A stretch of 64,000 nucleotides of DNA from Terriglobia bacterium (GTDB lineage Bacteria; Acidobacteriota; Terriglobia; 20CM-2-55-15): assembly GCA_965198225.1 (NCBI GenBank), contig CBDAOY010000008.1, positions 736,001 through 800,000 on the forward strand, in the 5' to 3' direction. The first letter of the stretch is position 1, and each line of letters starts with the position of its first letter. Below, one piece after another: positions 13,750-37,529 of this stretch. Under the pieces are notes generated by a model. That model searched no databases. It was not told the DNA's origin and saw nothing but the letters and a program-made list of their open reading frames with translations. Both the position numbers and the translations under genes were made by a program.

Positions 13750-13920
13750 ATGATTCACGATCCATTCGATGATCCGGGCCTGGAGGTGGCCTGGGAACCT
13801 GCACCAGATGACGAGCCACCGGCTCGCCTGTTGCGGTTTCCCGGGGTCACAGTCGCTTCCGAGTTCGACGAGCGTGTGTTGAACGACCCCAAGGAGGTCC
13901 TCGATGGAAGTCGCGCTTAA
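13750..13920 (+). CDS. Small acidic hypothetical protein (56 aa) preceding phhA
   Basis: RBS AAGGAGG; MIHDPFDDPGLEVAWEPAPDDEPPARLLRFPGVTVASEFDERVLNDPKEVLDGSRA*; overlaps the phhA start. Confidence 0.5.
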   Translation: MIHDPFDDPGLEVAWEPAPDDEPPARLLRFPGVTVASEFDERVLNDPKEVLDGSRA

Positions 13921-14767
13921 GAGCATCGCTTTCCTGGACCTTGACCACCCCGGCGCCAGGGATCCGGTATACCGCCTCCGCAGGGATTCCATCGCGCAAC
14001 TGACTCGGGAGTCGAGAGAGAAGGGAGAGCCGCCGCCGGTTCTCGAATACACCGAAGAAGAGCATGGCGTCTGGAGGATCATTTGCACCAGGCTGGGTCC
14101 GCTGCACGAACAGCATGCGAACAGGCGCTATCTGGAGGCGAAGAAGGCGCTTCGAATACCCGAGGATCACATTCCGCAGCTTCGGGAGTTGAGCGATCGA
14201 CTTGCCAGCTACCATGGTTTTCGGCTCGGGGCGGTCGAGGGGCTCGTCGATTCCCGGAGCTTCCTGAGCCAGTTTGCGCAGAAGTCGATGTGGTGCACTC
14301 AGTACATCCGTCACGCCTCCAGGCCCGAATACACACCGGAGCCCGACATCATCCATGAGGTCATCGGACATGTACCCGCGTTCACGGACAAGGACCTGTG
14401 TGACCTTTCGGTTTTGATCGGCCGGGCGGCGAGGGTTGCGAATGAAGAACAGCTCGAGCAGTTGGAGCGGATCTACTGGTTCACGATCGAGTTCGGGCTG
14501 ATCGAAGAGGCCGGACAGGTGAACGCCTACGGTGCGGGCCTCCTGGGTTCATTCGGCGAACTGCAACACGTGTATTCGGGAGAAGTCGAGAGGAAACCTT
14601 TTGTTCTGGATGAAGTCGTCAACGCGACCTACAACCACACCGAGATGCAGTCCAGGCTGTACGTCGTCCCGTCGTTTGCATTCTTGAGGGAACAGATCGA
14701 GCTCTACCTCCGGAAGTACGGGTTGGAGCATGCGCTGGAGAAGGAAGAAGTGACGAGCGAGCAGTGA
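13904..14767 (+). CDS. phhA: Phenylalanine 4-hydroxylase (biopterin-dependent aromatic amino acid hydroxylase)
   Basis: CTQYIRH...P.YTPEPDIIHEVIGHVP, YWFTIEFGL, AYGAGLLGSFGEL; Fe ligands His, His, Glu present. Confidence 0.93.
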   Translation: MEVALKSIAFLDLDHPGARDPVYRLRRDSIAQLTRESREKGEPPPVLEYTEEEHGVWRIICTRLGPLHEQHANRRYLEAKKALRIPEDHIPQLRELSDRLASYHGFRLGAVEGLVDSRSFLSQFAQKSMWCTQYIRHASRPEYTPEPDIIHEVIGHVPAFTDKDLCDLSVLIGRAARVANEEQLEQLERIYWFTIEFGLIEEAGQVNAYGAGLLGSFGELQHVYSGEVERKPFVLDEVVNATYNHTEMQSRLYVVPSFAFLREQIELYLRKYGLEHALEKEEVTSEQ

Positions 14768-20213: not shown

Positions 20214-20813
20214 TCAGGTCAGGGATCGAGTGAACAGGTCGCCGAAATCTTCGGCGATCTGTTCGGCCGTCATCTTCCCCCGGGGCGAGTACCACTGGAC
20301 GATCCAGTTCAACGCGCCCAGAATCGCCCACACAGTCGTCTTGACGTCGGAGGCCCTGAAGACTCCCTCCTTCATACCTGCCTCCACCACCTGGCGGTAG
20401 GCTTTCTCGTACCGATCCCGCTTCCGGACGATTTCCTTGAGTTGATCCTTTGGAAGCGACCGAAAGTCCGTGTGGGCTGTCGAGCCCGGCAGCTCCTCGA
20501 GCACCGTCCGGACGTGAAGCGCGATCAACCCTTTCAGTTTGGCGTCGGCCGTCTGATCCGATTCCACGACTTCGTCCGCCTGCTCGGTGAGACGTTCCAG
20601 GGAGTATTCCTGGCAGAAATAGAGGAGGTCCTGCTTGGAAGAGAAGTAGTAGTAGAGGTTGCCCTTGGCCATCTGCGCTTTTTCGGCAATCTCTGCCATC
20701 GTAGCTCCGGTGAATCCGTTGCGAGTGAAAGCGGCCGACGCAGAGCGGAGGATCTCCAGCCTGCGTTCGGTGAAGCGCCGATTACGCTTGACGGGTTTTT
20801 GTTTGTCGGCCAA
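20214..20813 (-). CDS. TetR-family regulator (KstR2/PaaR-like, CoA-thioester sensing type)
   Basis: HTH GFTGATMAEIA..A..AKGNLYYYFSSKQDLL; C-terminal GALNW..QWY.P.G. Confidence 0.88.
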   Translation of the reverse strand: MADKQKPVKRNRRFTERRLEILRSASAAFTRNGFTGATMAEIAEKAQMAKGNLYYYFSSKQDLLYFCQEYSLERLTEQADEVVESDQTADAKLKGLIALHVRTVLEELPGSTAHTDFRSLPKDQLKEIVRKRDRYEKAYRQVVEAGMKEGVFRASDVKTTVWAILGALNWIVQWYSPRGKMTAEQIAEDFGDLFTRSLT

Positions 20814-21708
20814 TCGGGCCTCCTCGGTGGATCTTTCGTCGCTTGCCCTTCGGCTCAGGGTCTTCCGGACGTGCCGCGCGGACCGATGCCGTGATCAATC
20901 CGACGGCGTCCCGGATCGGGGTCGAGCTCGTGTCGATCGTCTGTGTGGCCTCCGAGTAGAGAGGCGACCGAATCGACAAGATCGAGCGCAGTTCGGTCAT
21001 CGCGGATCGTCGGTTGGCCATCGGACGGGTGTCACCCTGGCCAAGCACGCGTTCCCAGTGGTCCTCCGGTGAGGCCTTCAGCCACACGGTATGCGTGCGG
21101 CGCTTCAACAGGGACCAGGTTTCCGGGTCGGTCACGATCGATCCACCGGTTGCGATCACCATCTGTTCGTTACGGGACAGAAGGCGCAGCATCAGGTCGT
21201 GGGCAAGGCGCTTATAGTAACTCTCGCCATGGAGAGAGAACAGCTCCGACAGTGAGAGGTTGGATTCCTCCTCGATCATGGCGTCCAATTCCACGAAAGA
21301 GATTTTCAGACGTCCTGCAAGGTTGGGTCCGATCGTCGATTTGCCCGCTCCGCGCAGACCCACCAGCGAGATCGACGGCCGTCTGTCTTCCTGAAGGCGT
21401 GTTCCGAGCCAGGCTGACAGCTCCTCCAGATCCTCGTCGGAGCATCGATCAACGAGAGCGATGACCCGCTCGAGCGAACTCCCGCTGCCCGTGTCCGGCG
21501 GCAGCAGCTTGACGAGCGGAACGCCCAGGGCCCGGGCAACGTCGGCCAGGCGGGCGACGGAGATGTTGCCCCTGCCGGCCTCCAGATCCGAAAGAAAGCG
21601 AGACGAGACGCCGGATCTCTCGGCAACTTCCTTGATTGTCCAGCCGGTTGTGTTCCGCAAAGTCCGGACGCGTTGTCCGACCTCAAGCAAAAGAGTGTCC
21701 TGATCCAT
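20782..21708 (-). CDS. boxR: BoxR/BzdR-type regulator (XRE HTH + shikimate-kinase-like domain)
   Basis: SGVSSRFLSDLEAGRGNIS HTH; LVGLRGAGKSTIG; ATGGSIV; LKASPEDHWERV..QGD.RPMA. Confidence 0.9.
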   Translation of the reverse strand: MDQDTLLLEVGQRVRTLRNTTGWTIKEVAERSGVSSRFLSDLEAGRGNISVARLADVARALGVPLVKLLPPDTGSGSSLERVIALVDRCSDEDLEELSAWLGTRLQEDRRPSISLVGLRGAGKSTIGPNLAGRLKISFVELDAMIEEESNLSLSELFSLHGESYYKRLAHDLMLRLLSRNEQMVIATGGSIVTDPETWSLLKRRTHTVWLKASPEDHWERVLGQGDTRPMANRRSAMTELRSILSIRSPLYSEATQTIDTSSTPIRDAVGLITASVRAARPEDPEPKGKRRKIHRGGPIGRQTKTRQA

Positions 21709-21728
21709 GTCAGCCTATATACGCAATA

Positions 21729-21776
21729 TGCAGTATAGTGCGTATTGACTTCAAGCATAATGTGCAATATAGTACA
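21729..21776 (+). promoter_or_regulatory. Sigma70 promoter overlapped by two BzdR/BoxR-like TGCA-N6-TGCA boxes
   Basis: TGCA-gtatag-TGCG (21729-21742) and TGCA-atatag-TACA (21763-21776); -35 TTGACT (21745), 17-nt spacer, -10 TATAGT (21768). Confidence 0.75.
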
Positions 21777-21849
21777 AACTTCGCTCTCAGCACTTTTCTG
21801 TATCTATACCCTCACACAAGATCAAGTTTGGGGCTTTAGGGAGGACCGA

Positions 21850-23286
21850 ATGGCCAAGATGTTTATCGGTGGGGAGTCGGTGGATGCCGCTTCCGGAGAC
21901 ACGTACGACGTCATTAACCCTGCAACCGGCGAGGTCGTCGACACGGTCGCCAAAGGCAACGAGGAAGACACGAGGCGTGCAATCGACAGCGCCACGGAGG
22001 CGTTTGCAGAATGGGCAGACACCGCCGCCGAATCCCGTGCCCATCTGATACAGAAGGGGATCGAACTCGTCAAGGCCGAGATCGACGACCTGTCAGTCAC
22101 TCTGACCAAAGAGCAGGGTAAACCCGTCAGCGAGTCGAAGCGCGAGATCGAGCACTTCCTCCACGGGATGTCGTTTTACGCGGGTCTCGCTTCGAAGGTA
22201 CGCGGCTCCTACGTCCCTCTCCCCAACAACAGCATGTACGGCATGGTTTTGAAGCAACCCGTGGGCGTATGCGGGGCAATCGTTCCCTGGAACTTCCCGA
22301 CGACGTTGATGGGAACCAAGATCGGCCCGGCCATGGCGGCCGGATGCACCTCGATCGTCAAGCCCGCATCGACGACCCCGCTGACGACGGTTCGGATCGT
22401 CGAGCTGTTCAACCAGGCCGGGCTCTCGAAAGGGGTGCTGAACGTGGTGACGGGTCCAGGCAGCGTGGTCGGCGAAGAACTGCTTCAGAATTCGAAAGTC
22501 AGGCGGATCGCATTCACCGGAGAGAGCGGAACCGGCAAGCACATCATGGAGGTTGCCGGCGGCAACATGAAGCGCGTGACGCTGGAGTTGGGCGGCAGCG
22601 ATCCCATGATCGTCTGCGAGGACGCGTTCATGAAAGGTGCGCTGACCGGCGCTGCTGTTGGCCGTTTCTACAACTGTGGTCAGGCCTGCCTGGCAGTCAA
22701 GCGGCTGTTCGTATTCGAGAATGTTTATGACGAGTTCGTCGAAGGGCTGGTCGGCAAGGCCGGGCGACTGGTGCCCGGCAACGGAATGAACGAAAAGGTC
22801 CGGATGGGACCGATGCACACGGCGGCCCAGAGAGAGGAAGTCGAGTCCCAGATCAAGGATGCCGTCGATCGCGGCGGGAAGGTCCTGGTCGGCGGCACCC
22901 GGCCCGAAGGCGAGGAATACGACAAGGGCAACTACCTGACTCCGGCCATCATCGTTGACGCGCCGCTGGATTCCCGTATCGCGACCGAAGAAGTGTTCGG
23001 GCCCGCCCTGCCGGTCTTCAAGGTCGGCGACCTGGATGAGGCGATCGAGAAAGCCAACAGCTCGGTGTTCGGCCTGGGTGCTTCGATCTGGACGAGCGAC
23101 CTGACCCGGGCGCGAAGGGCGGCGGAGCGGTTGGAGGCAGGAAACGTCTGGGTCAATTCGCTACATATCGGCTACGACGAAATGCCGTTCGGCGGGGTGA
23201 AGGACAGCGGAATAGGCCGCGAACACGGTCCCGAAGCCCTGGAGCATTACCTGGAACCCAAAGGGGTGGTGGTCGCGACCTTGTAG
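21850..23286 (+). CDS. NAD(P)-dependent aldehyde dehydrogenase (paralog 1)
   Basis: IVPWNFP, FTGESGTG, LELGGSDP, NCGQAC, EEVFGP, PFGG.K.SG.GRE. Confidence 0.93.
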   Translation: MAKMFIGGESVDAASGDTYDVINPATGEVVDTVAKGNEEDTRRAIDSATEAFAEWADTAAESRAHLIQKGIELVKAEIDDLSVTLTKEQGKPVSESKREIEHFLHGMSFYAGLASKVRGSYVPLPNNSMYGMVLKQPVGVCGAIVPWNFPTTLMGTKIGPAMAAGCTSIVKPASTTPLTTVRIVELFNQAGLSKGVLNVVTGPGSVVGEELLQNSKVRRIAFTGESGTGKHIMEVAGGNMKRVTLELGGSDPMIVCEDAFMKGALTGAAVGRFYNCGQACLAVKRLFVFENVYDEFVEGLVGKAGRLVPGNGMNEKVRMGPMHTAAQREEVESQIKDAVDRGGKVLVGGTRPEGEEYDKGNYLTPAIIVDAPLDSRIATEEVFGPALPVFKVGDLDEAIEKANSSVFGLGASIWTSDLTRARRAAERLEAGNVWVNSLHIGYDEMPFGGVKDSGIGREHGPEALEHYLEPKGVVVATL

Positions 23287-23294
23287 CGGGTCGG

Positions 23295-23546
23295 GTGTAG
23301 GTGCGCTCTATGAGCGCACATCGTCTCGGTTTGAAGAGTGTGCGGTCACAGACCGCACCTACACCGGGCCATAGGTCGTTCCTGCTTGGATACCTTTTGG
23401 GAAAACGGTCCGTGAGGGAGCCACTGTGAGGGGGACAGGGGTATAGCCCTGTCCCCGGGTTTTGAGGCAAGCAGACAACGTTCCCGAACGACGGAGCGCG
23501 CATGGTCTCGGTTCGAAGAGTGTGCGGTCATAGACCGCACCTACAC
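23295..23546. repeat. GTAG-type REP cluster (3 units) with a GGGGACAGGG palindrome
   Basis: REP units at 23295, 23339 and 23521; GGGGACAGGG-GTATAG-CCCTGTCCCC at 23431-23456. Confidence 0.8.
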
Positions 23547-23616
23547 CGGCGCAAGGTTGCTCCTGCATAGATGCGAAAGACGGGAACACGTAGAGTCGAA
23601 AAAGAAGGCAGGCTCA

Positions 23617-25065
23617 ATGCCGACAAAGATGATGGTCGCGGGCGAGTGGCGGAACTCGGCGGGCGGCAAAGAAAAAGAGATCCGGAACCCGGCCACAGGA
23701 GAGGTCGTCGACACGGTCGTCGAGGCGACGGAGTCGGATATCGCGGCGGCAATCGACTCCGCGGAGTCCGCTTTCCGGGATTGGGCCGCCACCCCCCCGC
23801 CGCGACGAGCCGAGATCGTGGACAGGGGAGCCCGCCTTGTCAAGGAGCGCGAGAAGGACTTAGCTCGCCTGCTGACTCAGGAGCAGGGCAAGCCGCTCCG
23901 GGAGGCGATGCTGGAGATTCGCCGCTTCGTTCACACGCTCAATCACTACACCGGTATGGCCAAAAGCATCCGGGGCGGCTACGTTCCCCTGCTCAACGAG
24001 CGCAGCTACGGGATGATCATCAAGAAACCGATCGGTATCGTGGGCTCGATCGTTCCATGGAATTTTCCGGTTGCGCTGATGGGGAACAAGATCGGGCCCG
24101 CCCTGATCGCGGGTGACACGATTGTCGTCAAGCCGGCCGGCACGACGCCCCTGACGGCGACGGCCTGCGTCGGTGTGCTCAACGAGGCTGGACTTCCACC
24201 GGGAGTCCTGAACATCGTGCCTGGACCCGGTGGGGTAGTCGGGGAAGCGCTGCTGAAGGACCCTAGAGTGCGCAAGATTGGATTTACGGGTGCGACGGAA
24301 ACAGGGCGACATGTCATGGAAGTGGCCGCCGAAACCGTGAAGCGAGTGACGCTTGAGCTGGGGGGGAGCGACCCGATGATCGTCTGCGACGACGCGAATA
24401 TCGATGCCGCGGTCAGCGCGGCTTCGGTCGGGCGCTTCTTCAATTGCGGTCAGGCGTGTCTTGCCATCAAGCGGCTGTACCTGTTCGACGAGATCTATGA
24501 CGAGTTCGTCGAGAAACTCGTCGCCAAAGTTGGGAAATTGCGTATCGGCAATGGACTCGAACAGGGTGTTCTGGTCGGACCGCTGCACAGCGCCGCTCAG
24601 CGTGAAGAGGTCGAAGAGCAGGTGCGGGATGCCGTGGAGGGTGGAGCCACCGTACTCGCCGGCGGGAAACGCCCTGAGGGAGACGGCCTGGACAAGGGAC
24701 ACTTCTACATGCCGACCCTTCTGGCGGACGTCGATGAGCAGTCGAAGGTCGTCCAGGAAGAGGTATTCGGCCCCGCCCTTCCGATCATGCGGGTCTCGGA
24801 GATGGACGAAGCGATCGAGCGTGCCAATTCATCGATATTCGGCCTGGGCTCTTCGGTGTGGACGCGCAACATCGACCGTGCCAACGAAGGGGCCGAACGG
24901 CTGGAGTCGGGTTACACGTGGGTGAATTCCCCGCAGATCATATTCGATGAGCTGCCCTTCGGGGGCGCCAAACAAAGTGGCCTCGGTAAGGAGCACGGGT
25001 CGGAGGCGTTCGACTACTACATGGAAACCAAGTCGGTTGTGATCGCGAAGAACACGACAGGCTGA
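23617..25065 (+). CDS. NAD(P)-dependent aldehyde dehydrogenase (paralog 2)
   Basis: IVPWNFP, FTGATETG, LELGGSDP, NCGQAC, EEVFGP; closely similar to paralog 1. Confidence 0.93.
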   Translation: MPTKMMVAGEWRNSAGGKEKEIRNPATGEVVDTVVEATESDIAAAIDSAESAFRDWAATPPPRRAEIVDRGARLVKEREKDLARLLTQEQGKPLREAMLEIRRFVHTLNHYTGMAKSIRGGYVPLLNERSYGMIIKKPIGIVGSIVPWNFPVALMGNKIGPALIAGDTIVVKPAGTTPLTATACVGVLNEAGLPPGVLNIVPGPGGVVGEALLKDPRVRKIGFTGATETGRHVMEVAAETVKRVTLELGGSDPMIVCDDANIDAAVSAASVGRFFNCGQACLAIKRLYLFDEIYDEFVEKLVAKVGKLRIGNGLEQGVLVGPLHSAAQREEVEEQVRDAVEGGATVLAGGKRPEGDGLDKGHFYMPTLLADVDEQSKVVQEEVFGPALPIMRVSEMDEAIERANSSIFGLGSSVWTRNIDRANEGAERLESGYTWVNSPQIIFDELPFGGAKQSGLGKEHGSEAFDYYMETKSVVIAKNTTG

Positions 25066-25127
25066 ATACTTCATTCGGACCAAAGCTATGGGATTCAGCG
25101 TCGCTGAAACCCGGGAGTGAAACGATT

Positions 25128-25910
25128 ATGGCCCTGGTAGATTATCGGGTTGAAGGCGGCCTCGGGATCATCGAGATCAACAATCCGCCGGCAAACGTCT
25201 ACACCCTGGACAGTCTGAAACTACTGGACGAGGCGATCGTGAAGACGCGGTTCGATTCCTCGGTCCACGTGATCGTGATAATGGGTGCCGGCGACAAGTT
25301 CTTCTCTGCGGGTGCCGACATCCGGATGCTCTCCTCGGAGACCACGGACTTCAAGAACAACTTTGCGCTGTTCGGTCACGAGACCCTGTTGCGTCTGGAG
25401 AATACGCCAAAGCTGGTGATCGCCGGCATCAACGGTCACTGTGTGGGCGGGGGCCTGGAGATCGCGATGGCGTGTGACATCCGGATCGCAAAAAAGGACG
25501 CGGGGCGGGTGGGGCTTGCCGAGGTCAATCTCGGTGTGATTCCCGGAATGGGCGGTACCCAGCGGTTGCCACGCCTCGTCGGTCGGGCACGCGCCCTGGA
25601 ACTCGGGGCGACCGGGCGCATGATCGCCTTCGAGGAGGCCGAAGCCTGGAACCTGATTCACGACATCTTTGATCCCGAAGACTTCAAGCAACAGGTGATG
25701 GACTACGCCGGCCAGTTCGTCGCTCCAAACAAGCCGAGCAAGGCGGTGGGTTTGATCAAGCGCGCGATTCAATCCGGTATCAACGGAAGTCTCGCCGACG
25801 GCCTGGCCCTGGAAAGGGAAGCCCTGGCCCAGGCCTTTGACAGTGCGGATGCTGCCGAGGGATTGAGCGCTTATCAGGAGAAGCGGGTGGCCAAGTTCGT
25901 TGGCAAGTAA
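25128..25910 (+). CDS. Enoyl-CoA hydratase/isomerase (single crotonase domain; candidate ring-opening enzyme)
   Basis: FFSAGADI, NGHCVGGGLEIAMACD, EVNLGVIPGMGGTQRLPRLVG. Confidence 0.88.
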   Translation: MALVDYRVEGGLGIIEINNPPANVYTLDSLKLLDEAIVKTRFDSSVHVIVIMGAGDKFFSAGADIRMLSSETTDFKNNFALFGHETLLRLENTPKLVIAGINGHCVGGGLEIAMACDIRIAKKDAGRVGLAEVNLGVIPGMGGTQRLPRLVGRARALELGATGRMIAFEEAEAWNLIHDIFDPEDFKQQVMDYAGQFVAPNKPSKAVGLIKRAIQSGINGSLADGLALEREALAQAFDSADAAEGLSAYQEKRVAKFVGK

Positions 25911-25972
25911 GCTGGGCAGGGTTCAACGGTGACAGGTCCTCGACCTGACCCGTTATGAGGAGGTAAGTTTAC

Positions 25973-27076
25973 GTGGCCAGAATTTCGACATTTGATGACT
26001 GGACCGACTATTTCCGCGAGTGGCAGAAGGACATCGGTCTGGATGCTTCGCGATTCGACGACTACGAATTTGAAGTGAAGTTCGGCCCGGTTGCATCGGA
26101 AGAGATCGAATTCGGCGATTTCGCCGGGCGCCCCAAGTGGGAGAGGGTGATCCAGATACCGGACCAGCGGATCCGGGACTCCCTGCTGCACTTGATTACG
26201 TTCCAGGGAGACACCGAGTTCGCGTCCGTCGAGCAGCAGAAGCACCTGCTCGACACCGCTCCGAGTGATTACGATCTGCAGTCGGCGCTCAAGATCATGA
26301 GGGAAGAGATGCGTCACGGGACGCAGATGTGCTACCTCCTCGTGAAGTACTTCGGCGACACCGGAAAACTCGAAGCTCAGAAACTCCTGGAGAGGCGTGC
26401 GTACGAGAACAGTCGCCTCCTGGGAGCTTTCAACCAGGACATCAGCGATTGGCTCGATTTCTACTGTTTCACGGAACTGGTCGACCGCGACGGCAAGTAT
26501 CAGCTGACCATGCTGAGCCACTCTGGGTTCAAACCTCTCGCGGCGAGTATGCAGCCGATGTTGGGAGAGGAGTTCTTCCACCTCCTGACCGGGCACACGG
26601 GTTTGAGCAGGATCATTAAAGCCGGAAAGGTTCCTCATGACATCCTGCAGAAACACGTCAACAAGTGGTATTCCGTCGCCCTGGATCTGTTTGGTGTGGA
26701 CCAGTCTTCCTCGGCGGCCTGGTTCTACGCCTGGGGACTCAAGGGACGTTACGACGAAGGGAGTGTCGAAGGCGAACCTGATCGGGACAAGCTGAACGAG
26801 GCGGCCCGCGGTCATTACATGGCGGAAGTTGCCGAGTTGTTCGCCGCACTGAACAAGTTGATACCGGAAGACCAGCCCAAGCTGAGCCTGCCGGATCCGA
26901 AATTTCACCGCGGTATCGGTGAGTTCGCGGACAAGAGATACGGCGCAACGGGAGAGCTGCTGTCACCGGATGCATACGCGACTCATCTCGAGAAAACTCT
27001 TCCTACCGCGGCGGACAAGGCGAAGCTGTCTGAGGTCTTCAAGGACCAGGACTGGATTCTCAAGGTAGAACAATAG
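25973..27076 (+). CDS. boxB: BoxB-like di-iron (benzoyl-)CoA epoxidase oxygenase subunit
   Basis: QGDTEFASVEQQ.HL...APS.YDL, EEMRH, DRDGKYQL, EEFFH, LDLFG...SS.A...Y..GLKGRY match BoxB motifs. Confidence 0.82.
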   Translation: MARISTFDDWTDYFREWQKDIGLDASRFDDYEFEVKFGPVASEEIEFGDFAGRPKWERVIQIPDQRIRDSLLHLITFQGDTEFASVEQQKHLLDTAPSDYDLQSALKIMREEMRHGTQMCYLLVKYFGDTGKLEAQKLLERRAYENSRLLGAFNQDISDWLDFYCFTELVDRDGKYQLTMLSHSGFKPLAASMQPMLGEEFFHLLTGHTGLSRIIKAGKVPHDILQKHVNKWYSVALDLFGVDQSSSAAWFYAWGLKGRYDEGSVEGEPDRDKLNEAARGHYMAEVAELFAALNKLIPEDQPKLSLPDPKFHRGIGEFADKRYGATGELLSPDAYATHLEKTLPTAADKAKLSEVFKDQDWILKVEQ

Positions 27077-27080
27077 ACTG

Positions 27081-27404
27081 ATGTCCGACAAGTACGTCCT
27101 CGTTTGTCAGAACGCCGATTGCAAAGCCCGGCAGGCGGGCGAGTTGTTGGAGGCGCTGGACAAACGGCTGAAGGATTCCGCCGACATTACGGTTAAACCG
27201 TACATGTGCTTCGGGGCCTGTCAGTCGGGCCCGAACATCGTGATGTATCCCCAGAAAGTCTGGTACGCGAAGGTGAGCCCGGACGACGTTGAGGACATTG
27301 CGGGCTATGCCGAGGGCGGGCCGGAAGTCGGGCGGTTGACCGAGGGCGTCGACCGGGGACTTCAGGAACTGATCTACCAGCTGTTGGACGCGGGACTGTT
27401 CTAG
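27081..27404 (+). CDS. Thioredoxin-like [2Fe-2S] ferredoxin (NuoE-like)
   Basis: CQNADC...CFGACQSGPNIVMYPQKVWY. Confidence 0.88.
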   Translation: MSDKYVLVCQNADCKARQAGELLEALDKRLKDSADITVKPYMCFGACQSGPNIVMYPQKVWYAKVSPDDVEDIAGYAEGGPEVGRLTEGVDRGLQELIYQLLDAGLF

Positions 27405-27424
27405 TGGCCTGTAGCAGGTCACTA
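27402..27424. repeat. Collapsed TIR-only copy of the E2-type element
   Basis: TAGTGGCCTG-TAG-CAGGTCACTA on the ferredoxin stop codon. Confidence 0.65.
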
Positions 27425-27453
27425 TACGCCTGATCCTCGGGATCAAGCGTGCG

Positions 27454-27541
27454 GTCAGCGGTCAGCTTTCAGCTTCCTGCCAGGAAACGGGACGCTCAGG
27501 GCCTTCATCCAGAAGCCTGAACGCTGAAAGCCGATGGCTGA
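27454..27541. repeat. Inverted heptamer arrays (TCAGCNN ... NNGCTGA)
   Basis: GTCAGCGGTCAGCTTTCAGC ... CTGAACGCTGAAAGCCGATGGCTGA. Confidence 0.6.
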
Positions 27542-27553
27542 TTGCATCTGCCC

Positions 27554-28843
27554 ATGATTGTTTTCCCAAACGGCGTCAAGTCGGCTCCAGGCAGCCCCGG
27601 CCGGGCGGGCCGTCCCGCGGAGCCCGAAAGCTTTGAGGCCTATCTGTCTTCCGGCGGGTATCAGGCGCTTGAAGCCGCCCTCGGCCGGTCGCGGTCCGCC
27701 GTCATCGACGAGATTGCCGCTGCGGGACTGAGAGGGAAGGGCGGCGCGGGCTTTCCGGCCGCGAAGAAGTGGCAGATTGCCGCCGAGACAGACGCCCGTC
27801 CGCGCTACGTCGTCTGTAACGCCGGCGAAGATGAGCCGGGAAGTTTCAAGGACCGAGCCGCGATCGAGCACCGGCCGCACCTGGTCTTGGAAGGAATGAT
27901 CCTGGCGGCTTACGCGGTCGGTGCGGAGCAAGCCTACCTCTACCTCAACGAGACCTACGACACCTGTCACGATCGCATCAGCGGGGCGATAGCGGAGGCT
28001 CGCGGGGCGTCCTACCTGGGCGAGCGGATCTGCGGCACGACGTTTTCGATGGAAGTGTCAATCTGCAGAGCGCCGACGACGTATGTAGCCGGAGAGGACT
28101 CGGCATCCCTGGAATTCCTGGAGGGGCGCGAGGCGAAGCCGCGGGAAAAGCCACCTTACCCTGCAGTGGCCGGCCTGTACGGTAAGCCGACGATCGTCAA
28201 CAACGTGGAGACCCTGGCGCACGTTCCCGCGATCCTTCGGCACGGCGCCGCCTGGTATCGTGGTTTTGGAGTGGAACACAGTCCAGGCACGATGATCTTC
28301 TGCCTGGGCGAGGAGGTGAACGCGCCGGGCGCCTACGAGCTCCCTGTCGGGACGACCGCACGGTACTTGCTCGAAGAATGCGGGGGAGGGCTGCGGGACG
28401 CTCGATCGGTTCGGGCGTTCCTTCCCGGCGGGCCGTCGTGCGCTTTCCTGAAGGGCGACGACCTGGATGTTGCGCTCGAGCCGGAGGCGCTCAAGGCGGC
28501 GGGATCGAGTCTCGGTTGCGGTGTGATGCGGTATTATCCGGAAGGAACGTGCATGCTCGAACCCGCCCTAGATCTGGCGGGGTTTTTTGCGAAGGAATGC
28601 TGTGAGCAGTGTCCTGCGTGTCGAATGGAGACGTCGATGCTGGCAGCCTTGTTGGAGAGGATCCGGCAGGGGCAGGGCGATCGGCACCTGTACGAGCAGT
28701 TTCCGAAGATCATCGAATTCAATCGCGGAAAAGGTTACTGCGCTCTCATCAACATGCCGGGCCCCCCGCTTCTGAGCGCAATCCGGCTGTTCCGGGAGGA
28801 CTTCGATCATCACCTGGAGCATGGCACCTGCCTGCAGGCCTGA
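27554..28843 (+). CDS. NuoF/HoxF-like FMN- and NAD(P)H-binding [4Fe-4S] flavoprotein, outside any complex I operon
   Basis: GLRGKGGAGFP, CNAGEDEPGSFKDR, YVAGEDSA, PTIVNNVETL, PGGPS, CCEQCPACR...GYCAL. Confidence 0.9.
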   Translation: MIVFPNGVKSAPGSPGRAGRPAEPESFEAYLSSGGYQALEAALGRSRSAVIDEIAAAGLRGKGGAGFPAAKKWQIAAETDARPRYVVCNAGEDEPGSFKDRAAIEHRPHLVLEGMILAAYAVGAEQAYLYLNETYDTCHDRISGAIAEARGASYLGERICGTTFSMEVSICRAPTTYVAGEDSASLEFLEGREAKPREKPPYPAVAGLYGKPTIVNNVETLAHVPAILRHGAAWYRGFGVEHSPGTMIFCLGEEVNAPGAYELPVGTTARYLLEECGGGLRDARSVRAFLPGGPSCAFLKGDDLDVALEPEALKAAGSSLGCGVMRYYPEGTCMLEPALDLAGFFAKECCEQCPACRMETSMLAALLERIRQGQGDRHLYEQFPKIIEFNRGKGYCALINMPGPPLLSAIRLFREDFDHHLEHGTCLQA

Positions 28844-28845
28844 AC

Positions 28846-29571
28846 ATGTTTGACGACAAGATTGAAGCCGCTGACTTCAACAAGATGCCGGAGGAATACC
28901 GGGATCTGCTGGTTCGCGTGTTGCGGATTCAGGCCGACTGCGAAATAGGCGGACCGCATCTCTACGTACGCGAATGGTTGCTGGGGGCACCGAGCGCCGA
29001 AGAACAGTGGAAGGTTGCCAAGACAGCGGCGGAGGAGATCGACCATTTTCACAAGATCAATGTCCTGTTGAACGAGCTCGGCTTTGACGCCTCGGATCGC
29101 CTGTTCATACAGAAGCCGGAGCGTTACGTGGACGCGTTCCGGAAGGACATGCCGACGTGGGCGGACTGGGCCGTTTTCGGGATGCTGATCGACCGGGTGG
29201 GACAATATCAGCTCGACGAGTTCGTCGATTGCAGCTACCTGCCGTTGGCACGCCTTTTGCCGCCCTACGACAACCAGATCCTCGAGGAGGAGCAGGGACA
29301 CGTCCACTTCGGCCTTTTGAAGATGGTCGAGCTCATGAAGACCGAGGAAGGCAAGCGACAGGTCCAGAACGCTGTCGACCGGTGGTACATCACCGCCCTG
29401 GACATGTTCGGTCAGACGGAATCCCGGCGCAGCCATCGCTACATCGACTGGGGCATCAAGCGGCGCACGAACATGGAAGCGCGGCGGGCTTACATTGCCG
29501 AGGTGAACCCGATCCTGGAAAAACTGGGGCTGAACATTCCGGATGCCGAAGAGGGAAGGAAGTTCATGTAG
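28846..29571 (+). CDS. PaaA-like ferritin-fold di-iron protein
   Basis: KIEAAD..KMPEEYR, ADCEIG, APS, EEIDH, TWAD...G.LIDR, CSY.PLAR, EEQGH, Q.AVDRW...LDMFG, WGIKRRTN. Confidence 0.82.
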   Translation: MFDDKIEAADFNKMPEEYRDLLVRVLRIQADCEIGGPHLYVREWLLGAPSAEEQWKVAKTAAEEIDHFHKINVLLNELGFDASDRLFIQKPERYVDAFRKDMPTWADWAVFGMLIDRVGQYQLDEFVDCSYLPLARLLPPYDNQILEEEQGHVHFGLLKMVELMKTEEGKRQVQNAVDRWYITALDMFGQTESRRSHRYIDWGIKRRTNMEARRAYIAEVNPILEKLGLNIPDAEEGRKFM

Positions 29572-29658
29572 CAGGGAAGTGACAAGTTGTTGAAGAAGTG
29601 GTCAGCCAGCCGGAAACCCCTGCGGCCATCTCTCAACTGACTACTGACTACTTCTTCT

Positions 29659-30444
29659 TCACTTCCCCTTGAACTTCGGCTCCCTTTTCTCCAGGAACGC
29701 CTCGACGCCTTCCTTGAAGTCATCGGTGCGGGTGGTTTCGGCGATCAGGGCACTCTCCTGCGCGAGGTGGACGTCGAGCAGGTTCTTGTGGCTGCTGTTG
29801 ATCAAAAGCTTGATCCTGCCCAAGGCCTCGGTGGGCCCCCGGGCCATTTGCTTCGCCCAGACGGAAGTCTCTTCCTCCAATCGATCATCCGGAACGACGC
29901 GATTGATGATTCCCCATTTGTATGCGTCGGTCGCCGAAATGGAATCCCCCGTGAAGAACAACTCAGTCGCCTTCCCGACTCCCACGAGGCGCGGGAGGAA
30001 ATAGGTTCCTTCGGAGGTCAGGCCGAGCTGGACCCACGATTGGTTGAAACTGGCCGACTCGGCGGCGATCCGAAGGTCGCATGCCAGCGCGAGGTTGAAC
30101 CCCTGACCGCTCGCGACGCCGTGGATGGCGGCGATCACGGGCTTCGGGATCGTCCGCAGTTGCATCTCGAGCAAGTGCACCCGGTTGATCCAGTTCTTCA
30201 TGAACGCCTCGGTGTCGCCATCCATCATGTTTTCCATGACATGGATGTCGCCGCCGGAACTGAAGGCTCTGCCGTTCCCCTTTAGGATGATGGCGCGAAC
30301 ATCGCTGTTCTGAGTGGCATCGAAGATTGCCCGGAGCATCTCGTCCAGCATGTCGAGATCGATGGCGTTCAGGTTTTCGGGCCGGTCCATAGTGAGCGTA
30401 CCGACCTGATCGACCACTGAAAACTGGATGTTCTTGTAGTCCAT
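29659..30444 (-). CDS. Enoyl-CoA hydratase/isomerase (PaaG-like crotonase)
   Basis: RPENLNA, AFSSGGD, PKPVIAAIHGVASGQGFNLALACD, DFKEGVEAFLEKREPKFKG. Confidence 0.85.
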   Translation of the reverse strand: MDYKNIQFSVVDQVGTLTMDRPENLNAIDLDMLDEMLRAIFDATQNSDVRAIILKGNGRAFSSGGDIHVMENMMDGDTEAFMKNWINRVHLLEMQLRTIPKPVIAAIHGVASGQGFNLALACDLRIAAESASFNQSWVQLGLTSEGTYFLPRLVGVGKATELFFTGDSISATDAYKWGIINRVVPDDRLEEETSVWAKQMARGPTEALGRIKLLINSSHKNLLDVHLAQESALIAETTRTDDFKEGVEAFLEKREPKFKGK

Positions 30445-30518: not shown

Positions 30519-31592
30519 TTAGGCGAGAAGGGCGCGCTGGACGAACCAGTAGAACCCCAATGACATGATCGCTACCGAAGCGACGGTCATGACACGTTCC
30601 TTCCAGCGAGTTCGGCCGAGGTAGATCAACAGGGGAAACAGCGCGCTGACAAACACCAGTTGGCCGATCTCCACTCCGATATTGAAGGAGAACAGCGACA
30701 CCGCAAGCGTTCGGCGGCTCAGCTCCATTTCCTGCAGGACGTTCGAGAACCCGAACCCATGGACGAGTCCGAAGAGGAAGGTGATCTTCCAGCGATGGAC
30801 CAGGGTGTGACCCGTGAAGTTTTCGATGGCGATGTAGGCGATGCTCAGCGCAATCAGGCTCTCGATGAGTCGCGCCGGCAGGGCGACCAGGCCGAAGGTT
30901 GCCAACGCGAGAGTGACGCTGTGCGCGAGGGTGAAGGAAGTAACGACTTTGGCAAGCGCCAGGAGAGTGGTCGTCGCCATCAGGAGGCCCACGAGAAAGG
31001 CCAGATGGTCGTAGCCCGTGAATATGTGTTCGATCCCGAGCTCGCTGAAATCCAGCATCGTCACCCAGAGGGGAACGCCGGCAGCATAATCGATGTCGAT
31101 TTCCGGTTCGTCGGCGCTGAGCACACCGTGGCGTGCTTCGTCACCTTCGCCGATCTGCAGGAGGTGGCGATGGTTGGGTTGTGTGATCTCGTCGAGCCTC
31201 GACACAACCCGGAGGTCGGTCACCTCGTGTTCGAATCGGTAGACGATGTTCAGCCGGGCGACGTTGTCGGCGACGAAATCATAGTTGTCGAGAAAGGACT
31301 CCGCCGGAACATCGGGTGCCCGGACCAGAAAGTGCTCTCGGATCGCCTCGAAAAACTCGACGATGACTTCATCGAGCTCGTCGGAGGTGGCGAGGCCGTC
31401 GGCGTCGGCGTCGACCTGCGGCCCGGCGTGCAGGTCCAGGAGGTTCAGCGTCAGCGCGACCCGAACGACCGGGCCTTCCGCGGAGAAACGGGAATAGCTG
31501 GTCGAGAAGTCGTGGGCCGTGGCTCTCGTGGCAAAAGCCAGAGCCAGGAGGAGAAAAAGACCTACTGTAAAAGCCCTACGTCGTTTCAACAT
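30519..31592 (-). CDS. HupE/UreJ-family protein with an extracytoplasmic N-terminal domain
   Basis: Signal peptide ending AH; GIEHIFTGYDHLAF, TSFTLAHSVTL, FGLVHGFGFS, FNIGVEIGQ. Confidence 0.88.
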   Translation of the reverse strand: MLKRRRAFTVGLFLLLALAFATRATAHDFSTSYSRFSAEGPVVRVALTLNLLDLHAGPQVDADADGLATSDELDEVIVEFFEAIREHFLVRAPDVPAESFLDNYDFVADNVARLNIVYRFEHEVTDLRVVSRLDEITQPNHRHLLQIGEGDEARHGVLSADEPEIDIDYAAGVPLWVTMLDFSELGIEHIFTGYDHLAFLVGLLMATTTLLALAKVVTSFTLAHSVTLALATFGLVALPARLIESLIALSIAYIAIENFTGHTLVHRWKITFLFGLVHGFGFSNVLQEMELSRRTLAVSLFSFNIGVEIGQLVFVSALFPLLIYLGRTRWKERVMTVASVAIMSLGFYWFVQRALLA

Positions 31593-31686
31593 GCCCTCCA
31601 GATCGTATACTGATTCCGGCACGGGTGTTGCATTACTTTTCTCCGTCCGAGATCGGTGAATCGGACCGGTTGACGCTCCGACTCCT

Positions 31687-34932: not shown

Positions 34933-35745
34933 GGCGTGTTAACACTAATGAGCATGAATGTTTTATAATCACGCATGGAGATCACACAGGAGCAGTATTG
35001 TCGCATCGAGCCGGAACTGCCGCGTCAGCGGGGCAACGTCAGTCTTTCGAACCTGACGGTCTTGAACGCCATTTTGTATGTGGCTGAGCAGGGCTGCAAG
35101 TGGCGCGGTCTGCCCAAGCGCTTTGGCAACTGGCACACCATCTACACCCGGATGAACCGCTGGTCCAAGAACGGCGTGCTCGACGCCGTCTTCGAGAAAC
35201 TCCAGCGCGAGCAACTGGTCCGCATCCGGGTCGAAGCCGTTTCGATGGACTCAACCATTGTGAAGGTGCATCCCGACGGCACGGGAGCGTTAAAAAAAAC
35301 GGTCCGCAAGCGATCGGCAAATCCCGCGGCGGATGGACCACCAAGATTCATCTGGTTGCCGCGAATGCTCGAACGGCGATAACGTTTGCGCTCTCGCCCG
35401 GCCAAGCGCACGACGCCCCGCAGGGCCGCGATCTGCTCGCCGGCCTGGGGCCATTGCCCGCGCCGCTGCCGCTGCTGATGGACCGTGCCTACCAGGACGA
35501 CCAGACCCGCCAATTGGCTCTGGATTTTGGGTGGATTCCCGTCGTGCCGCCCAAGCGCAACCGCCTGGAGCCGTGGGAATACGACCGCGTGCTCTACCGC
35601 CGCAGGAACGAAGTCGAGAGGCTCTTCCGCCGACTCAAGGGTTTCCGGCGTATCTTCTCCCGTTTCGATAAACTCGACGTCATGTTCCTCGCCTTCCTTC
35701 ACTTCGCGCTCATCGTCGAGGCACTACGTTAGTGTTAACACGCCC
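34932..35745 (+). mobile_element. IS5-family (IS427 group) insertion sequence, apparently complete
   Basis: Perfect 16-bp TIR GGGCGTGTTAACACTA / TAGTGTTAACACGCCC; inserted in CTAG with TA duplication. Confidence 0.92.
34975..35732 (+). CDS. IS5-family DDE transposase (two ORFs joined by a probable -1 frameshift at A8, 35292-35299)
   Basis: GCKWRGLP..FGNWHTIY.R..RW; DST.VK.H; IGKSRGG.TTKIH; MDRAY; YRRRNEVERLFRRLK.FRRI..RFDK. Confidence 0.9.
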
Positions 35746-35769
35746 TAGTGACCTGTTACAGGTCACTAG
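35745..35769. repeat. Collapsed TIR-only copy of the E2-type element (25-bp palindrome)
   Basis: CTAGTGACCTGT-T-ACAGGTCACTAG, matching the TIR starts of 46073-46347. Confidence 0.75.
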
Positions 35770-36038
35770 CCAATAGCGGGAACGATTTCGACTTCGGCGC
35801 CGTCCGGGATTACCGCACTCATGTTTCCGGTGTCGCGAGCATCTTCGCCGTCGATATAGATGTTGAGTCCGGGATGGATCCGACCGTCTCTTCCGCAGGC
35901 ATGGTTCCGGAAACCGGGATGCCGTCGCTCGATGGCGGCGATCAGTTCCGAAACTGTCGCAACCTCCAGCTCCATCCGGGCCTTGGTGCGGAGATTCTGC
36001 CGGAGGGGCAGGTGAATCCAGACGCTGGAGACTCCCAT
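35766..36038 (-). CDS. MoaD/ThiS-family ubiquitin-like protein (ends PAIG)
   Basis: ATVSELIAAIERRHPG, NIYIDGED, DGAEVEIVPAIG*. Confidence 0.78.
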   Translation of the reverse strand: MGVSSVWIHLPLRQNLRTKARMELEVATVSELIAAIERRHPGFRNHACGRDGRIHPGLNIYIDGEDARDTGNMSAVIPDGAEVEIVPAIG

Positions 36039-36046
36039 CGGCTGAG

Positions 36047-36634
36047 CTACTGTGCGACGGGTTGTTCTTTCCGGTTCGGGACGACGCTGTCGTTCTTGAA
36101 CGGGCTTACTCCGCGCGTCGAGAACGTCGGTTCCGAGGTGTTTCTGCAGTCGTAGTAGTCCCACCGTTGGGTGTGGTCGCACACGAAGACTTCATCGAAC
36201 AGCATGGAGCTGATAGGCAGAGTCACAGTTTTCCGGGTGTTGCGTATCACGAAGACCGGATGGAAGCCTTCCCGCGACAGTCCGTTCCACCGGATCCGGT
36301 CGTCATCGCTGAGCGGCCCGACGGCATCGCTGAGGACCTCGCGGAAGAACCGAAGCTTGAAGCCGTCATGAAGGTGGTTCGTTGCAACAACATAGTCGTT
36401 GCCCTGATGGAAAAGGAGGAGCTTGCTTGTGGCCCGGCGGTAAATGAGCGGAAAGATCGAAAGTACGAGGGTGACGACTGCAACCAGACCCAGACCCATC
36501 AGACCCAGGCGGACCGGTCCAGAGCTGCCAGGAAAGGTCGATGCAACGCCGATCAGAACGGCGATCGCCGAGACGATGGCCAGGGCGCCTGCCAAACGCA
36601 TGCGGTTGATTTCGTTCCGTCCGAGCACGACCAT
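36047..36634 (-). CDS. Hypothetical protein with two N-terminal TM helices
   Basis: RBS GGAGG, ATG 36634, 2 TM then a soluble domain. Confidence 0.55.
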   Translation of the reverse strand: MVVLGRNEINRMRLAGALAIVSAIAVLIGVASTFPGSSGPVRLGLMGLGLVAVVTLVLSIFPLIYRRATSKLLLFHQGNDYVVATNHLHDGFKLRFFREVLSDAVGPLSDDDRIRWNGLSREGFHPVFVIRNTRKTVTLPISSMLFDEVFVCDHTQRWDYYDCRNTSEPTFSTRGVSPFKNDSVVPNRKEQPVAQ

Positions 36635-36794
36635 GATTGACCCTCCGGCCCAAACTTCAAACCTGTCATTATACCGGGGCTGCAGGCGTGTTGCCAGCAG
36701 CCCCGGTAGTGGCCGGTTGTCACGAGTCAGTTGCCGGTTGTGCAGGGAACGACTTCCCTCCTCAGATGAGGAGGGAAGTCGTTCCCTGACTCTC

Positions 36795-37150
36795 ATGAGA
36801 TATTCATCCGACGCATTGAGAGCCCACGCTTCTCCATTGATCGAGATCGCGAGTGCCGCCGAGCAAGTTCCGGGTGTTTATCGTCTCTTCTACGGTGAGT
36901 CATCAGTCTTGGGGAGCAGGAGGCGCTGTGGCAAATGGCCCTGGCGCACGACTTTGTGATTCTGAGCGACGAGGTCTACGAACGGCTGGTGTTTGATGGG
37001 CGAGTTGCGCCTTCGTTCGCGAGGGTGGCGACGGACAGAGAGCACTTGCTTGTCGTCAACAGCTTCTCAAAGACCTACAACATGACCGGTTGGCGGTTAG
37101 GCTATGCTTTGGGTAGCCCAACTTTGATCGCTCTGATGACGAAGGTTGAA
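36795..37150 (+). pseudogene. Class I/II PLP aminotransferase remnant
   Basis: N-terminus MRYSS..L.YGES, then an internal deletion, then ILSDEVYERL and NSFSKTYNMTGWRLGY; truncated at the IS21 fragment. Confidence 0.82.
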
Positions 37151-37211
37151 GACCCGGATCGGCGTAAATGGTGTCGTTGCAGGCCGGTTTGGCGGCCCCG
37201 ATTAGACGACG

Positions 37212-37529
37212 GTGCAACTGCTGGCCCGAGCCCGCCGCGCTGGCACCCACATCGGCACACTCTGTGACGCCATTCACCGCCGACAAGGGGAAGCTGCGGT
37301 CCGCCGCATCCTGGGTGTGCTCTCCCTGGCCAAGAAGTACGGTGTCTCCGCCGTGGAGGATGCTTCGGCTGCGGCACTGGAACTCCACGTCTACGAGTAT
37401 CGTTTCGTCCGCCGCTATCTGGAGCGGCGACCTCCACTCGCCCTGCGTCAGGTCGATCCTCTCATTCGCGAACTGACTCAGTATCGCGATCTCATCAACC
37501 TCAAAATCCAGGAGCAGGAACACTCATGA
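37212..37529 (+). pseudogene. istA: IstA transposase C-terminal fragment
   Basis: RRILGVLSLAKKYG...LRQVDPLIRELTQY directly upstream of istB; DDE core absent. Confidence 0.72.

Follow-up and report, generated by a model that had tools for sequence, protein, structure and literature searches.

A 64,000-nucleotide stretch of the genome of a Terriglobia bacterium (assembly GCA_965198225.1, contig CBDAOY010000008.1, positions 736,001 to 800,000; hereafter the window) carries a gene cluster built around a short relative of BoxB, the di-iron epoxidase of benzoyl-coenzyme A (benzoyl-CoA). The host is a soil acidobacterium of the Solibacteraceae type, in which the operon is accessory and catabolic. 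The genes, called by Pfam and NCBIfam scans, lie between window positions 20214 and 30510. The BoxB-type gene is followed by the genes of a thioredoxin-like [2Fe-2S] ferredoxin and of a NuoF-like flavoprotein, together called the pair below. On balance, the cluster is best read as an operon for the Box-type epoxidation of an aryl-CoA, most likely benzoyl-CoA, in which the trimmed BoxB is served by the dedicated ferredoxin and flavoprotein. This reading is built on direct observations, namely the gene content, the conservation of the active site, the lack of the usual reductases, the linkage of the genes and the conservation of the operator.

Two regulator genes occupy the reverse strand at one end of the cluster. 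One encodes a TetR-family regulator of 199 residues (20214-20813; Pfam TetR_N and TetR_C_24), the other a BzdR/BoxR-type regulator of 308 residues (20782-21708; Pfam HTH_3 and SKI), which scores 305.3 bits with the model NF006015 against a cut-off of 204. An earlier note on this DNA had described the two genes as divergent. Both are divergent from the catabolic genes, but they share one strand and overlap by 32 bases, and the TetR gene is probably co-transcribed with the BzdR-type gene. On the forward strand, a predicted operator-promoter region for the catabolic genes (21729-21776), recognized by reading of the sequence and by alignment with eight loci, is followed by the genes of aldehyde dehydrogenase 1 (ALDH1, 478 residues from its ATG, 21850-23286; Pfam Aldedh, 529.6 bits), aldehyde dehydrogenase 2 (ALDH2, 482 residues from its ATG, 23617-25065; Aldedh, 543.2 bits), the single-domain crotonase ECH1 (260 residues, 25128-25910; Pfam ECH_1), the short BoxB-type di-iron protein (367 residues, 25973-27076), the ferredoxin (107 residues, 27081-27404), the NuoF/HydB-type flavoprotein (27542-28843; 433 residues from TTG 27542 or 429 from ATG 27554) and a small PaaA-like protein, here called mini-PaaA (241 residues, 28846-29571). 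A second, PaaG-like crotonase, ECH2, converges on them from the reverse strand (261 residues from ATG 30444, 29659-30444; Pfam ECH_1).

All genes that the earlier note had named are present in the order that it gave, although several starts had to be corrected. For ALDH1 the most likely start is ATG 21850 and not TTG 21745, where its longest open reading frame begins; this TTG forms part of the -35 box of the promoter. The most likely starts of ALDH2 and ECH2 are ATG 23617 and ATG 30444, their longest frames beginning at 23557 and extending to 30510, respectively. The ferredoxin gene starts only 5 bases past the BoxB stop, and the mini-PaaA gene, with its ATG at 28846, 3 bases past the stop of the flavoprotein gene. 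A PaaA-like open reading frame of 320 residues beginning at 28609 was not accepted as the gene, because its first 79 residues overlap the flavoprotein. The apparent conservation of this N-terminal part is an echo, in another frame, of the flavoprotein C-terminus; the same echo, with stop codons, occurs at a locus without any PaaA-like gene.

The short BoxB scores 247.4 bits with the equivalog model TIGR03225, about half of the cut-off of 499.1 and below the family threshold, and the model aligns to it piecewise, at model positions 64-324 and 353-437. Its match to the solved BoxB structure 3PER has an E-value of 3.9e-56. With 367 residues, the chain is a trimmed version of a BoxB of about 473: about 40 residues are gone from each end, together with two internal loops. 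The earlier note was right that both this protein and the crotonase ECH1 are shorter than their canonical counterparts, a BoxB of about 473 residues and a two-domain BoxC of about 550. According to passages of PMC5489048, the di-iron ligands of BoxB are E120, E150, H153, D211, E240 and H243, and a second shell of Q116, T119, S123, F193, F203, F206 and T210 binds the benzoyl group and orients its ring. In the alignment with 3PER all six metal ligands are identical in the short BoxB (E82, E112, H115, D171, E200 and H203), and six of the seven pocket residues are kept (Q116, T119, S123, F193, F203 and F206), T210 being replaced by valine. The ligands are invariant in 41 homologues, in which the pocket positions are conserved as well. 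The pocket, as judged from the alignment, appears compatible with benzoyl-CoA, which is not proof of this substrate. An AlphaFold model of the protein (predicted local distance difference test score 80.7) has BoxB structures as all of its ten best PDB matches (template modelling (TM) score 0.78-0.79, E-value about 1e-17), and the predicted fold is that of BoxB. The predicted complex of the short BoxB with the ferredoxin reached a score of 0.20, the mark being 0.32, and was counted neither for nor against an interaction.

A second short-BoxB copy lies outside the window (G000:C9:872670-873557; locus L008:10488-11579). Its identity is 68% over residues 4-127 and 41% over residues 223-365; residues 124 to 222, approximately, are gone and 35 residues are inserted. 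This copy was rejected as an alternative enzyme, the internal deletion removing three metal ligands. The product has no Pfam match. The neighbours of the gene, a universal stress protein and an aconitase, are unrelated, and it is probably a decayed gene or remnant.

Mini-PaaA scores 109.5 bits with TIGR02156, below the cut-off of 280. It keeps the six ligand positions of PaaA, which are invariant in 36 homologues, and its structural model is closer to PaaA (TM 0.84-0.85, 28-30% identity) than to the ligand-less PaaC (TM 0.73-0.76). Because the ligands are kept and PaaA is the closer match, the protein is regarded as a minimal PaaA of the catalytic type and not as a structural subunit. It is present in the window and at five of 12 pair-carrying loci, and was found in none of the 400 other genomes of an even sample of 401 Acidobacteriota genomes (the phylum sample). 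SSO1313 of Sulfolobus solfataricus, an uncharacterised PaaA-like protein (PDB 4MUD, 235 residues), has the same size class and fold (TM 0.81), but only 25% identity.

The ferredoxin belongs to the family PF01257 (29.7-30.8 bits against a cut-off of 24.8). Cys9, Cys14, Cys43 and Cys47 and the C-terminal tail are invariant in 11 orthologues, and the tail is retained even where the neighbouring oxygenase differs. The earlier note had taken the two proteins for a NuoEF-like pair. The ferredoxin, however, is not a NuoE but a free-standing protein of the Fd4 type, whose best PDB match is Aquifex Fd4 (1F37). It has no counterpart of the N-terminal part of NuoE and aligns with the N-terminal domain of HydB-type hydrogenase subunits. 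The ferredoxin aligns with residues 7-99 and the flavoprotein with residues 127-531 of one and the same HydB-type chain, 7T2R_B, so that what two genes encode here is a single fused protein in other systems. The two NuoE-type genes of the genome (175 and 151 bits with PF01257) lie elsewhere.

In the flavoprotein the domains Complex1_51K, SLBB and NADH_4Fe-4S all score above their Pfam cut-offs, and its translation contains what we take to be the glycine-rich flavin mononucleotide (FMN) motif and the CxxCxxC...C pattern. It is predicted to bind FMN and reduced nicotinamide adenine dinucleotide (NADH) and to carry a [4Fe-4S] cluster. Its score with the NuoF model TIGR01959, 402.9 bits, is below the cut-off of 558.65, and the gene lies between oxygenase genes and in no nuo operon. 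By ranks of PDB scores the protein is about equidistant from HydB, NfnB, Thermus Nqo1 and HoxF (310-322 bits). It is the third paralogue in the genome; the other two, located elsewhere, are 43% and 37% identical to it. The spacer between the ferredoxin and flavoprotein genes (27405-27541) is 137 bases long in the window, the two genes abut at loci L010 and L017, and one DNA contig of run X3 is missing 7 bases at position 27451 within this spacer.

BoxA, as described in passages of PMC4498308, is a reductase with flavin adenine dinucleotide and two [4Fe-4S] clusters that uses the reduced dinucleotide phosphate NADPH; it is needed in small amounts only and binds BoxB transiently. Its replacement by other donors is therefore plausible. 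The source genome is 97% complete, and the searches with family models covered all of it. Neither BoxA (best match 20.8 bits against a cut-off of 459), nor a two-domain BoxC (best match ECH1, 86 bits against 712.3), nor PaaE (32.7 bits against 421) was found in the genome, so that the earlier note's statement that these proteins are missing from the cluster can be extended to the whole genome. Only two genes of the PaaA_PaaC family are present, both inside the operon, and since both keep their metal ligands the genome has no structural subunit of the PaaC type. The cluster itself, as the earlier note had it, is without a CoA ligase; yet the genome has a gene of the benzoate-CoA ligase family (594.8 bits against 375) at a distance of about 495 kb, with no aromatic-pathway genes in its neighbourhood.

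ECH1 consists of one crotonase domain and falls short of the two-domain type that BoxC represents. It is nevertheless the commonest neighbour of the short BoxB: orthologues with 57-91% identity stand beside it in 24 of 38 short-BoxB rows. It is a candidate for the ring-opening hydrolase in the role of BoxC, a role proposed from linkage. The ranking by similarity lends no support to a specific relationship to BoxC, ECH1 scoring 182 bits with the ordinary hydratase 2PPY and 90 bits with the BoxC structure 2W3P, which ranks far lower among its PDB matches. According to PMC4498308, a review, BoxC relieves the product inhibition of BoxB, and its two catalytic glutamates belong to a single active domain. 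By-eye reading of the translation finds glutamates at both corresponding crotonase positions of ECH1. ECH2 scores 214 bits with the PaaG model TIGR02280 (cut-off 345) and 212 bits with the alternative oxepin-CoA hydrolase model NF046063 (cut-off 300), and neither aldehyde dehydrogenase reached any NCBIfam equivalog cut-off. At five of 16 canonical box loci (L082, L084, L085, L088 and L089) boxB is followed by TetR, ECH1-like and ECH2-like genes. The ECH1-like crotonases of these five loci are 53-56% identical to ECH1 of the window, and the ECH1 family therefore accompanies both the long and the short BoxB.

The BzdR/BoxR-type regulator consists of a helix-turn-helix domain and a shikimate-kinase-like domain. 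Its gene is kept at nine of the 11 loci closest to the window, and the TetR gene at L010, L011, L016, L017 and L023. A box TGCA(N6)TGCG at 21729-21742 is adjacent to the -35 box TTGACT (21745-21750), which is separated by a 17-base spacer from the -10 box TATAGT (21768-21773). A second box, TGCA(N6)TACA at 21763-21776, covers the -10 element. The boxes are conserved across the window and eight loci, and L023 has the exact TGCA(N6)TGCA. Passages of PMC6678401 give TGCA(N6)TGCA palindromes as the operators of BzdR and benzoyl-CoA as its inducer. By this comparison, the regulator and the conserved predicted operator point to benzoyl-CoA. At two relatives that have no pair, L019 and L051, the short BoxB adjoins a 4-hydroxybenzoyl-CoA reductase, a molybdenum enzyme whose alpha subunit scores 994.4 and 1041.9 bits, respectively, against the equivalog cut-off of 994.55. 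This neighbour bears on the substrate because the product of 4-hydroxybenzoyl-CoA reductase is benzoyl-CoA.

Evidence that the pair belongs to the short BoxB comes from its linkage in other genomes. A scan of public genomes for the short BoxB gave 25 loci, of which 24 were left after L033, a match of 21 residues only, was dropped. Where BoxB identity is at least 72%, the pair lies directly downstream at all 11 loci, the ferredoxin match being in two pieces at two of them. The family of the window comprises 34 genomes, partly the same as those of the 11 close loci, so that the two counts are not independent. The orthologue of the flavoprotein is present in 15 of the 34, a short BoxB of the pair-linked type in 14, and neither in 18; the two genes are adjacent in all 13 genomes that hold both, and the three genomes with only one of them are fragmented assemblies. 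A metagenome search started from the flavoprotein gave eight loci, seven of which are orthologues with at least 56% identity. The ferredoxin gene lies just upstream at all seven. Four have a short BoxB, which precedes the pair at every one of these loci that had enough upstream DNA, two are cut at the ferredoxin, and the remaining one, L079, is a 6.1-kb contig that has, in this order, a crotonase, a CoA-transferase, the ferredoxin, the flavoprotein and mini-PaaA, and no BoxB. The pair therefore travels with different di-iron oxygenases. Among 120 listed NuoF-like clusters, 21 have a longest contig exactly equal in size to that of a listed short-BoxB cluster, a proxy only for physical linkage.

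In a quick tree of 45 BoxB rows, with support from the Shimodaira-Hasegawa-like approximate likelihood ratio test and the C9 remnant excluded, all short BoxBs form one clade (support 100), within which the 12 pair-linked sequences (99) and 23 unlinked ones (98) form clades of their own. The gene arrangement is far beyond chance. The earlier note had named a canonical boxA elsewhere in the genome and a lack of conserved linkage in other genomes as findings that would speak against its idea. No boxA is present, the linkage is conserved both at the close loci and in the family, and the idea has withstood both checks.

Two RNA libraries, both from one study, contain contigs with 95% identity or more to parts of ALDH1, the flavoprotein gene and mini-PaaA, and one of these contigs spans the junction of the flavoprotein and mini-PaaA genes (28702-29054). 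They give a weak hint that the operon is expressed. Two RNA-library runs leave large parts of the operon uncovered, which is no evidence of silence.

Several results weigh against the proposed reading. The RNA-library contigs may include DNA, and they were compared without a control stretch. At 55-59% BoxB identity the pair is present at none of six loci, and at 36-38% all seven loci are boxC-boxB clusters of the canonical kind, which likewise lack the pair (L026 confirmed by NCBIfam). In the phylum sample 116 of the 401 genomes have a match to the BoxB family (a tally that includes the unpublished G024 and G152), and 24 besides that of the window have a full-length short BoxB. Twenty of these 24 short-BoxB loci were examined: the pair is present at one (G377) and missing at 19, a neighbouring ECH1 orthologue is present at eight, and 12 have neither. 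Five of five short-BoxB genomes without the pair hold no orthologue of the flavoprotein, only paralogues with 37-41% identity, so that a short BoxB is evidently reducible by unlinked donors. Nor do canonical clusters of the same phylum help: none of the 16 boxC-boxB loci examined has the pair within about 9 kb or any linked or adjacent reductase, and the genes downstream of canonical boxB were rejected as reductases at the five acidobacterial loci examined. ECH1 is closer to ordinary short-chain enoyl-CoA hydratases than to BoxC by PDB score, and the reading does not account for there being two aldehyde dehydrogenases. All steps of catalysis and electron transfer, including the transfer from the pair to BoxB, are inferred. 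Finally, the substrate of the short BoxB may differ from benzoyl-CoA, because its score is half of the cut-off and T210 is replaced.

These counts also change what the pair can be said to be. Not one of the 401 sampled genomes has a BoxA match that reaches the family cut-off, while 116 have a BoxB-family gene, and 'instead of BoxA' cannot describe a swap within this lineage. Most short BoxBs being without the pair and the phylum being without BoxA, the pair is better understood as a dedicated reductase specific to one clade than as a local replacement of BoxA. The earlier note's proposal that the pair is an epoxidase reductase in place of BoxA is partly supported: the linkage is conserved in the close clade, but the pair is not the general partner of short BoxBs. 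Within canonical BoxB sequences of the sample, some matches lie in open frames of 746-1179 residues (G224, G244, G268, G284, G372 and others), which may be boxC-boxB fusions or just long open frames in G+C-rich DNA.

The doubt about the substrate leads to the first alternative, namely that an operon of the same architecture acts on another aryl-CoA, such as a substituted benzoyl-CoA, as a peripheral pathway. Besides the low score of 247 bits and the valine in the pocket, the two aldehyde dehydrogenases together with mini-PaaA suggest chemistry beyond the canonical Box route, and the cluster brings no CoA ligase of its own. We nonetheless consider this alternative rather unlikely, as all ligands and six of seven pocket residues are kept, the BzdR/BoxR-type regulator has a matching operator, relatives adjoin an enzyme that produces benzoyl-CoA, and the genome does hold a gene of the benzoate-CoA ligase family.

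According to the second alternative, the pair serves mini-PaaA or some other acceptor, and the short BoxB draws on unlinked housekeeping donors as its relatives do. Most short and canonical BoxBs of the phylum are indeed without a linked reductase, and the L079 contig combines the pair with mini-PaaA, but seven of the 12 pair loci are without mini-PaaA and still have the pair directly after the short BoxB. The 5-base distance between the BoxB stop and the ferredoxin start, and the separate clade of 12 pair-linked BoxBs with 99% support, likewise tie the pair to BoxB, and this alternative appears improbable. Very improbable is the third, that the pair is no oxygenase reductase and is either a diaphorase of another enzyme, for example one handling the formate from ring cleavage, or a low-oxygen epoxide-deoxygenation module: NuoF-type modules otherwise come, by their PDB names, from complex I, hydrogenases and formate dehydrogenases, and passages of PMC5489048 propose that BoxB deoxygenates its own product, but no catalytic formate dehydrogenase or hydrogenase subunit is present in or near the operon, and deoxygenation would require electrons to reach the di-iron site by the very same path, which makes it a variant of the proposed reading and not a true rival.

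If the operon is a Box-type epoxidation operon served by the pair, the pathway would begin with the unlinked benzoate-CoA ligase, which would produce benzoyl-CoA. Benzoyl-CoA would free the BzdR/BoxR-type repressor from the TGCA(N6)TGCA boxes that overlap the promoter. The FMN of the flavoprotein would accept two electrons from NAD(P)H, probably NADH, and the [4Fe-4S] cluster would pass them as single electrons in turn to the small [2Fe-2S] ferredoxin, which would reduce the di-iron centre of the short BoxB. The short BoxB would then activate O2 and epoxidize the ring. ECH1 would open the ring hydrolytically, in the role of BoxC, and the aldehyde product would be oxidized by one or both aldehyde dehydrogenases, in the role of BoxD. 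The PaaG-like ECH2 may shift a double bond ahead of beta-oxidation. Mini-PaaA may be an optional second oxygenase fed by the same reductase.

Among the known systems, the closest is BoxABC(D) of Azoarcus/Aromatoleum evansii and Burkholderiales (BoxB structures 3PER and 3PM5). The two have in common a di-iron oxygenase with identical ligands and a near-identical benzoyl pocket, a crotonase-family enzyme, an aldehyde dehydrogenase, CoA-thioester substrates, and a BzdR/BoxR-type regulator with TGCA(N6)TGCA operators. They differ in that the BoxB of the window is trimmed and scores below the cut-off, that a single-domain crotonase of 260 residues stands in the place of the two-domain BoxC, that the aldehyde dehydrogenases number two and some members of the clade have the additional mini-PaaA, and that the position of BoxA is taken by a [2Fe-2S] ferredoxin and a NuoF-type FMN/[4Fe-4S] flavoprotein. 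The phenylacetyl-CoA epoxidase PaaABCDE is likewise a ferritin-like di-iron epoxidase of an acyl-CoA. Mini-PaaA has the ligands and the fold of PaaA, and the gene set, with a PaaG-like crotonase and an aldehyde dehydrogenase, follows the same logic. In contrast to the Paa system, the genome has no PaaC-type subunit and no PaaE (PaaB and PaaD were not searched for), and mini-PaaA, with 241 residues against about 309 in PaaA, scores 109.5 bits where the model demands 280. In its three Pfam domains the flavoprotein agrees with the diaphorases of the NuoE/NuoF type (complex I, HoxFU, HydBC, NfnBC and FdsBG), and the ferredoxin is in the same thioredoxin-like [2Fe-2S] fold family as NuoE and the N-terminal domain of HydB. 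Unlike these, the pair lies outside nuo, hox, hyd and fds operons and has oxygenases as its partner genes, and the flavoprotein is without the C-terminal ferredoxin domains of HydB.

The operon is set between unrelated genes, which encode peptidases at one end and, at the opposite end, a HupE/UreJ membrane protein and a lactate-utilisation fusion. The gene of the HupE/UreJ-family membrane protein (367 residues, 30519-31622, reverse strand) lies directly upstream of ECH2 on the same strand and holds the same place at L010, L011, L017 and L023. About 6 kb upstream of the operon there is a gene of a biopterin-dependent aromatic amino acid hydroxylase (13904-14767), and about 5 kb downstream there are insertion-sequence genes (region 35100-38281), a DDE transposase (35100-35732) and an IstB-like ATPase (37526-38281). 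The spacer of 330 bases between ALDH1 and ALDH2 (23287-23616) contains a repeat of about 75 bases in several copies. Searched against the genome by short-word BLAST, this spacer gave 1238 match rows, the self-match included, and it has many alternative joints in the DNA contigs of run X3. The repeat looks like a REP-like (repetitive extragenic palindromic) or MITE-like (miniature inverted-repeat transposable element) sequence inserted within the operon.

To our knowledge, all characterised di-iron aromatic-CoA epoxidases use reductases of the ferredoxin-NADP+ reductase type (BoxA and PaaE). The combination of a NuoF-type flavoprotein and a thioredoxin-like ferredoxin would solve the task in another way and would probably use another nicotinamide cofactor. 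Full-text literature searches, supplementary files aside, found no published description of such a BoxB/NuoF-type system, which is probably an undescribed route of electron supply to this type of enzyme. There is an even chance, in our judgement, that the pair represents a new modular class of reductases for ferritin-like acyl-CoA oxygenases, in which a diaphorase of the complex-I/hydrogenase type has become a dedicated, NADH-driven supply for a trimmed BoxB, for mini-PaaA or for both, and that this class arose in a phylum that runs Box-type epoxidation without BoxA. Metagenome annotation names these genes "NuoF" and "BoxB" only. Marker surveys that demand boxA, or full-length boxB and boxC, would misjudge the potential of the abundant soil Acidobacteriota for aerobic benzoate degradation, and the phylum being without BoxA, the supply of electrons to BoxB in Acidobacteriota becomes a testable question.

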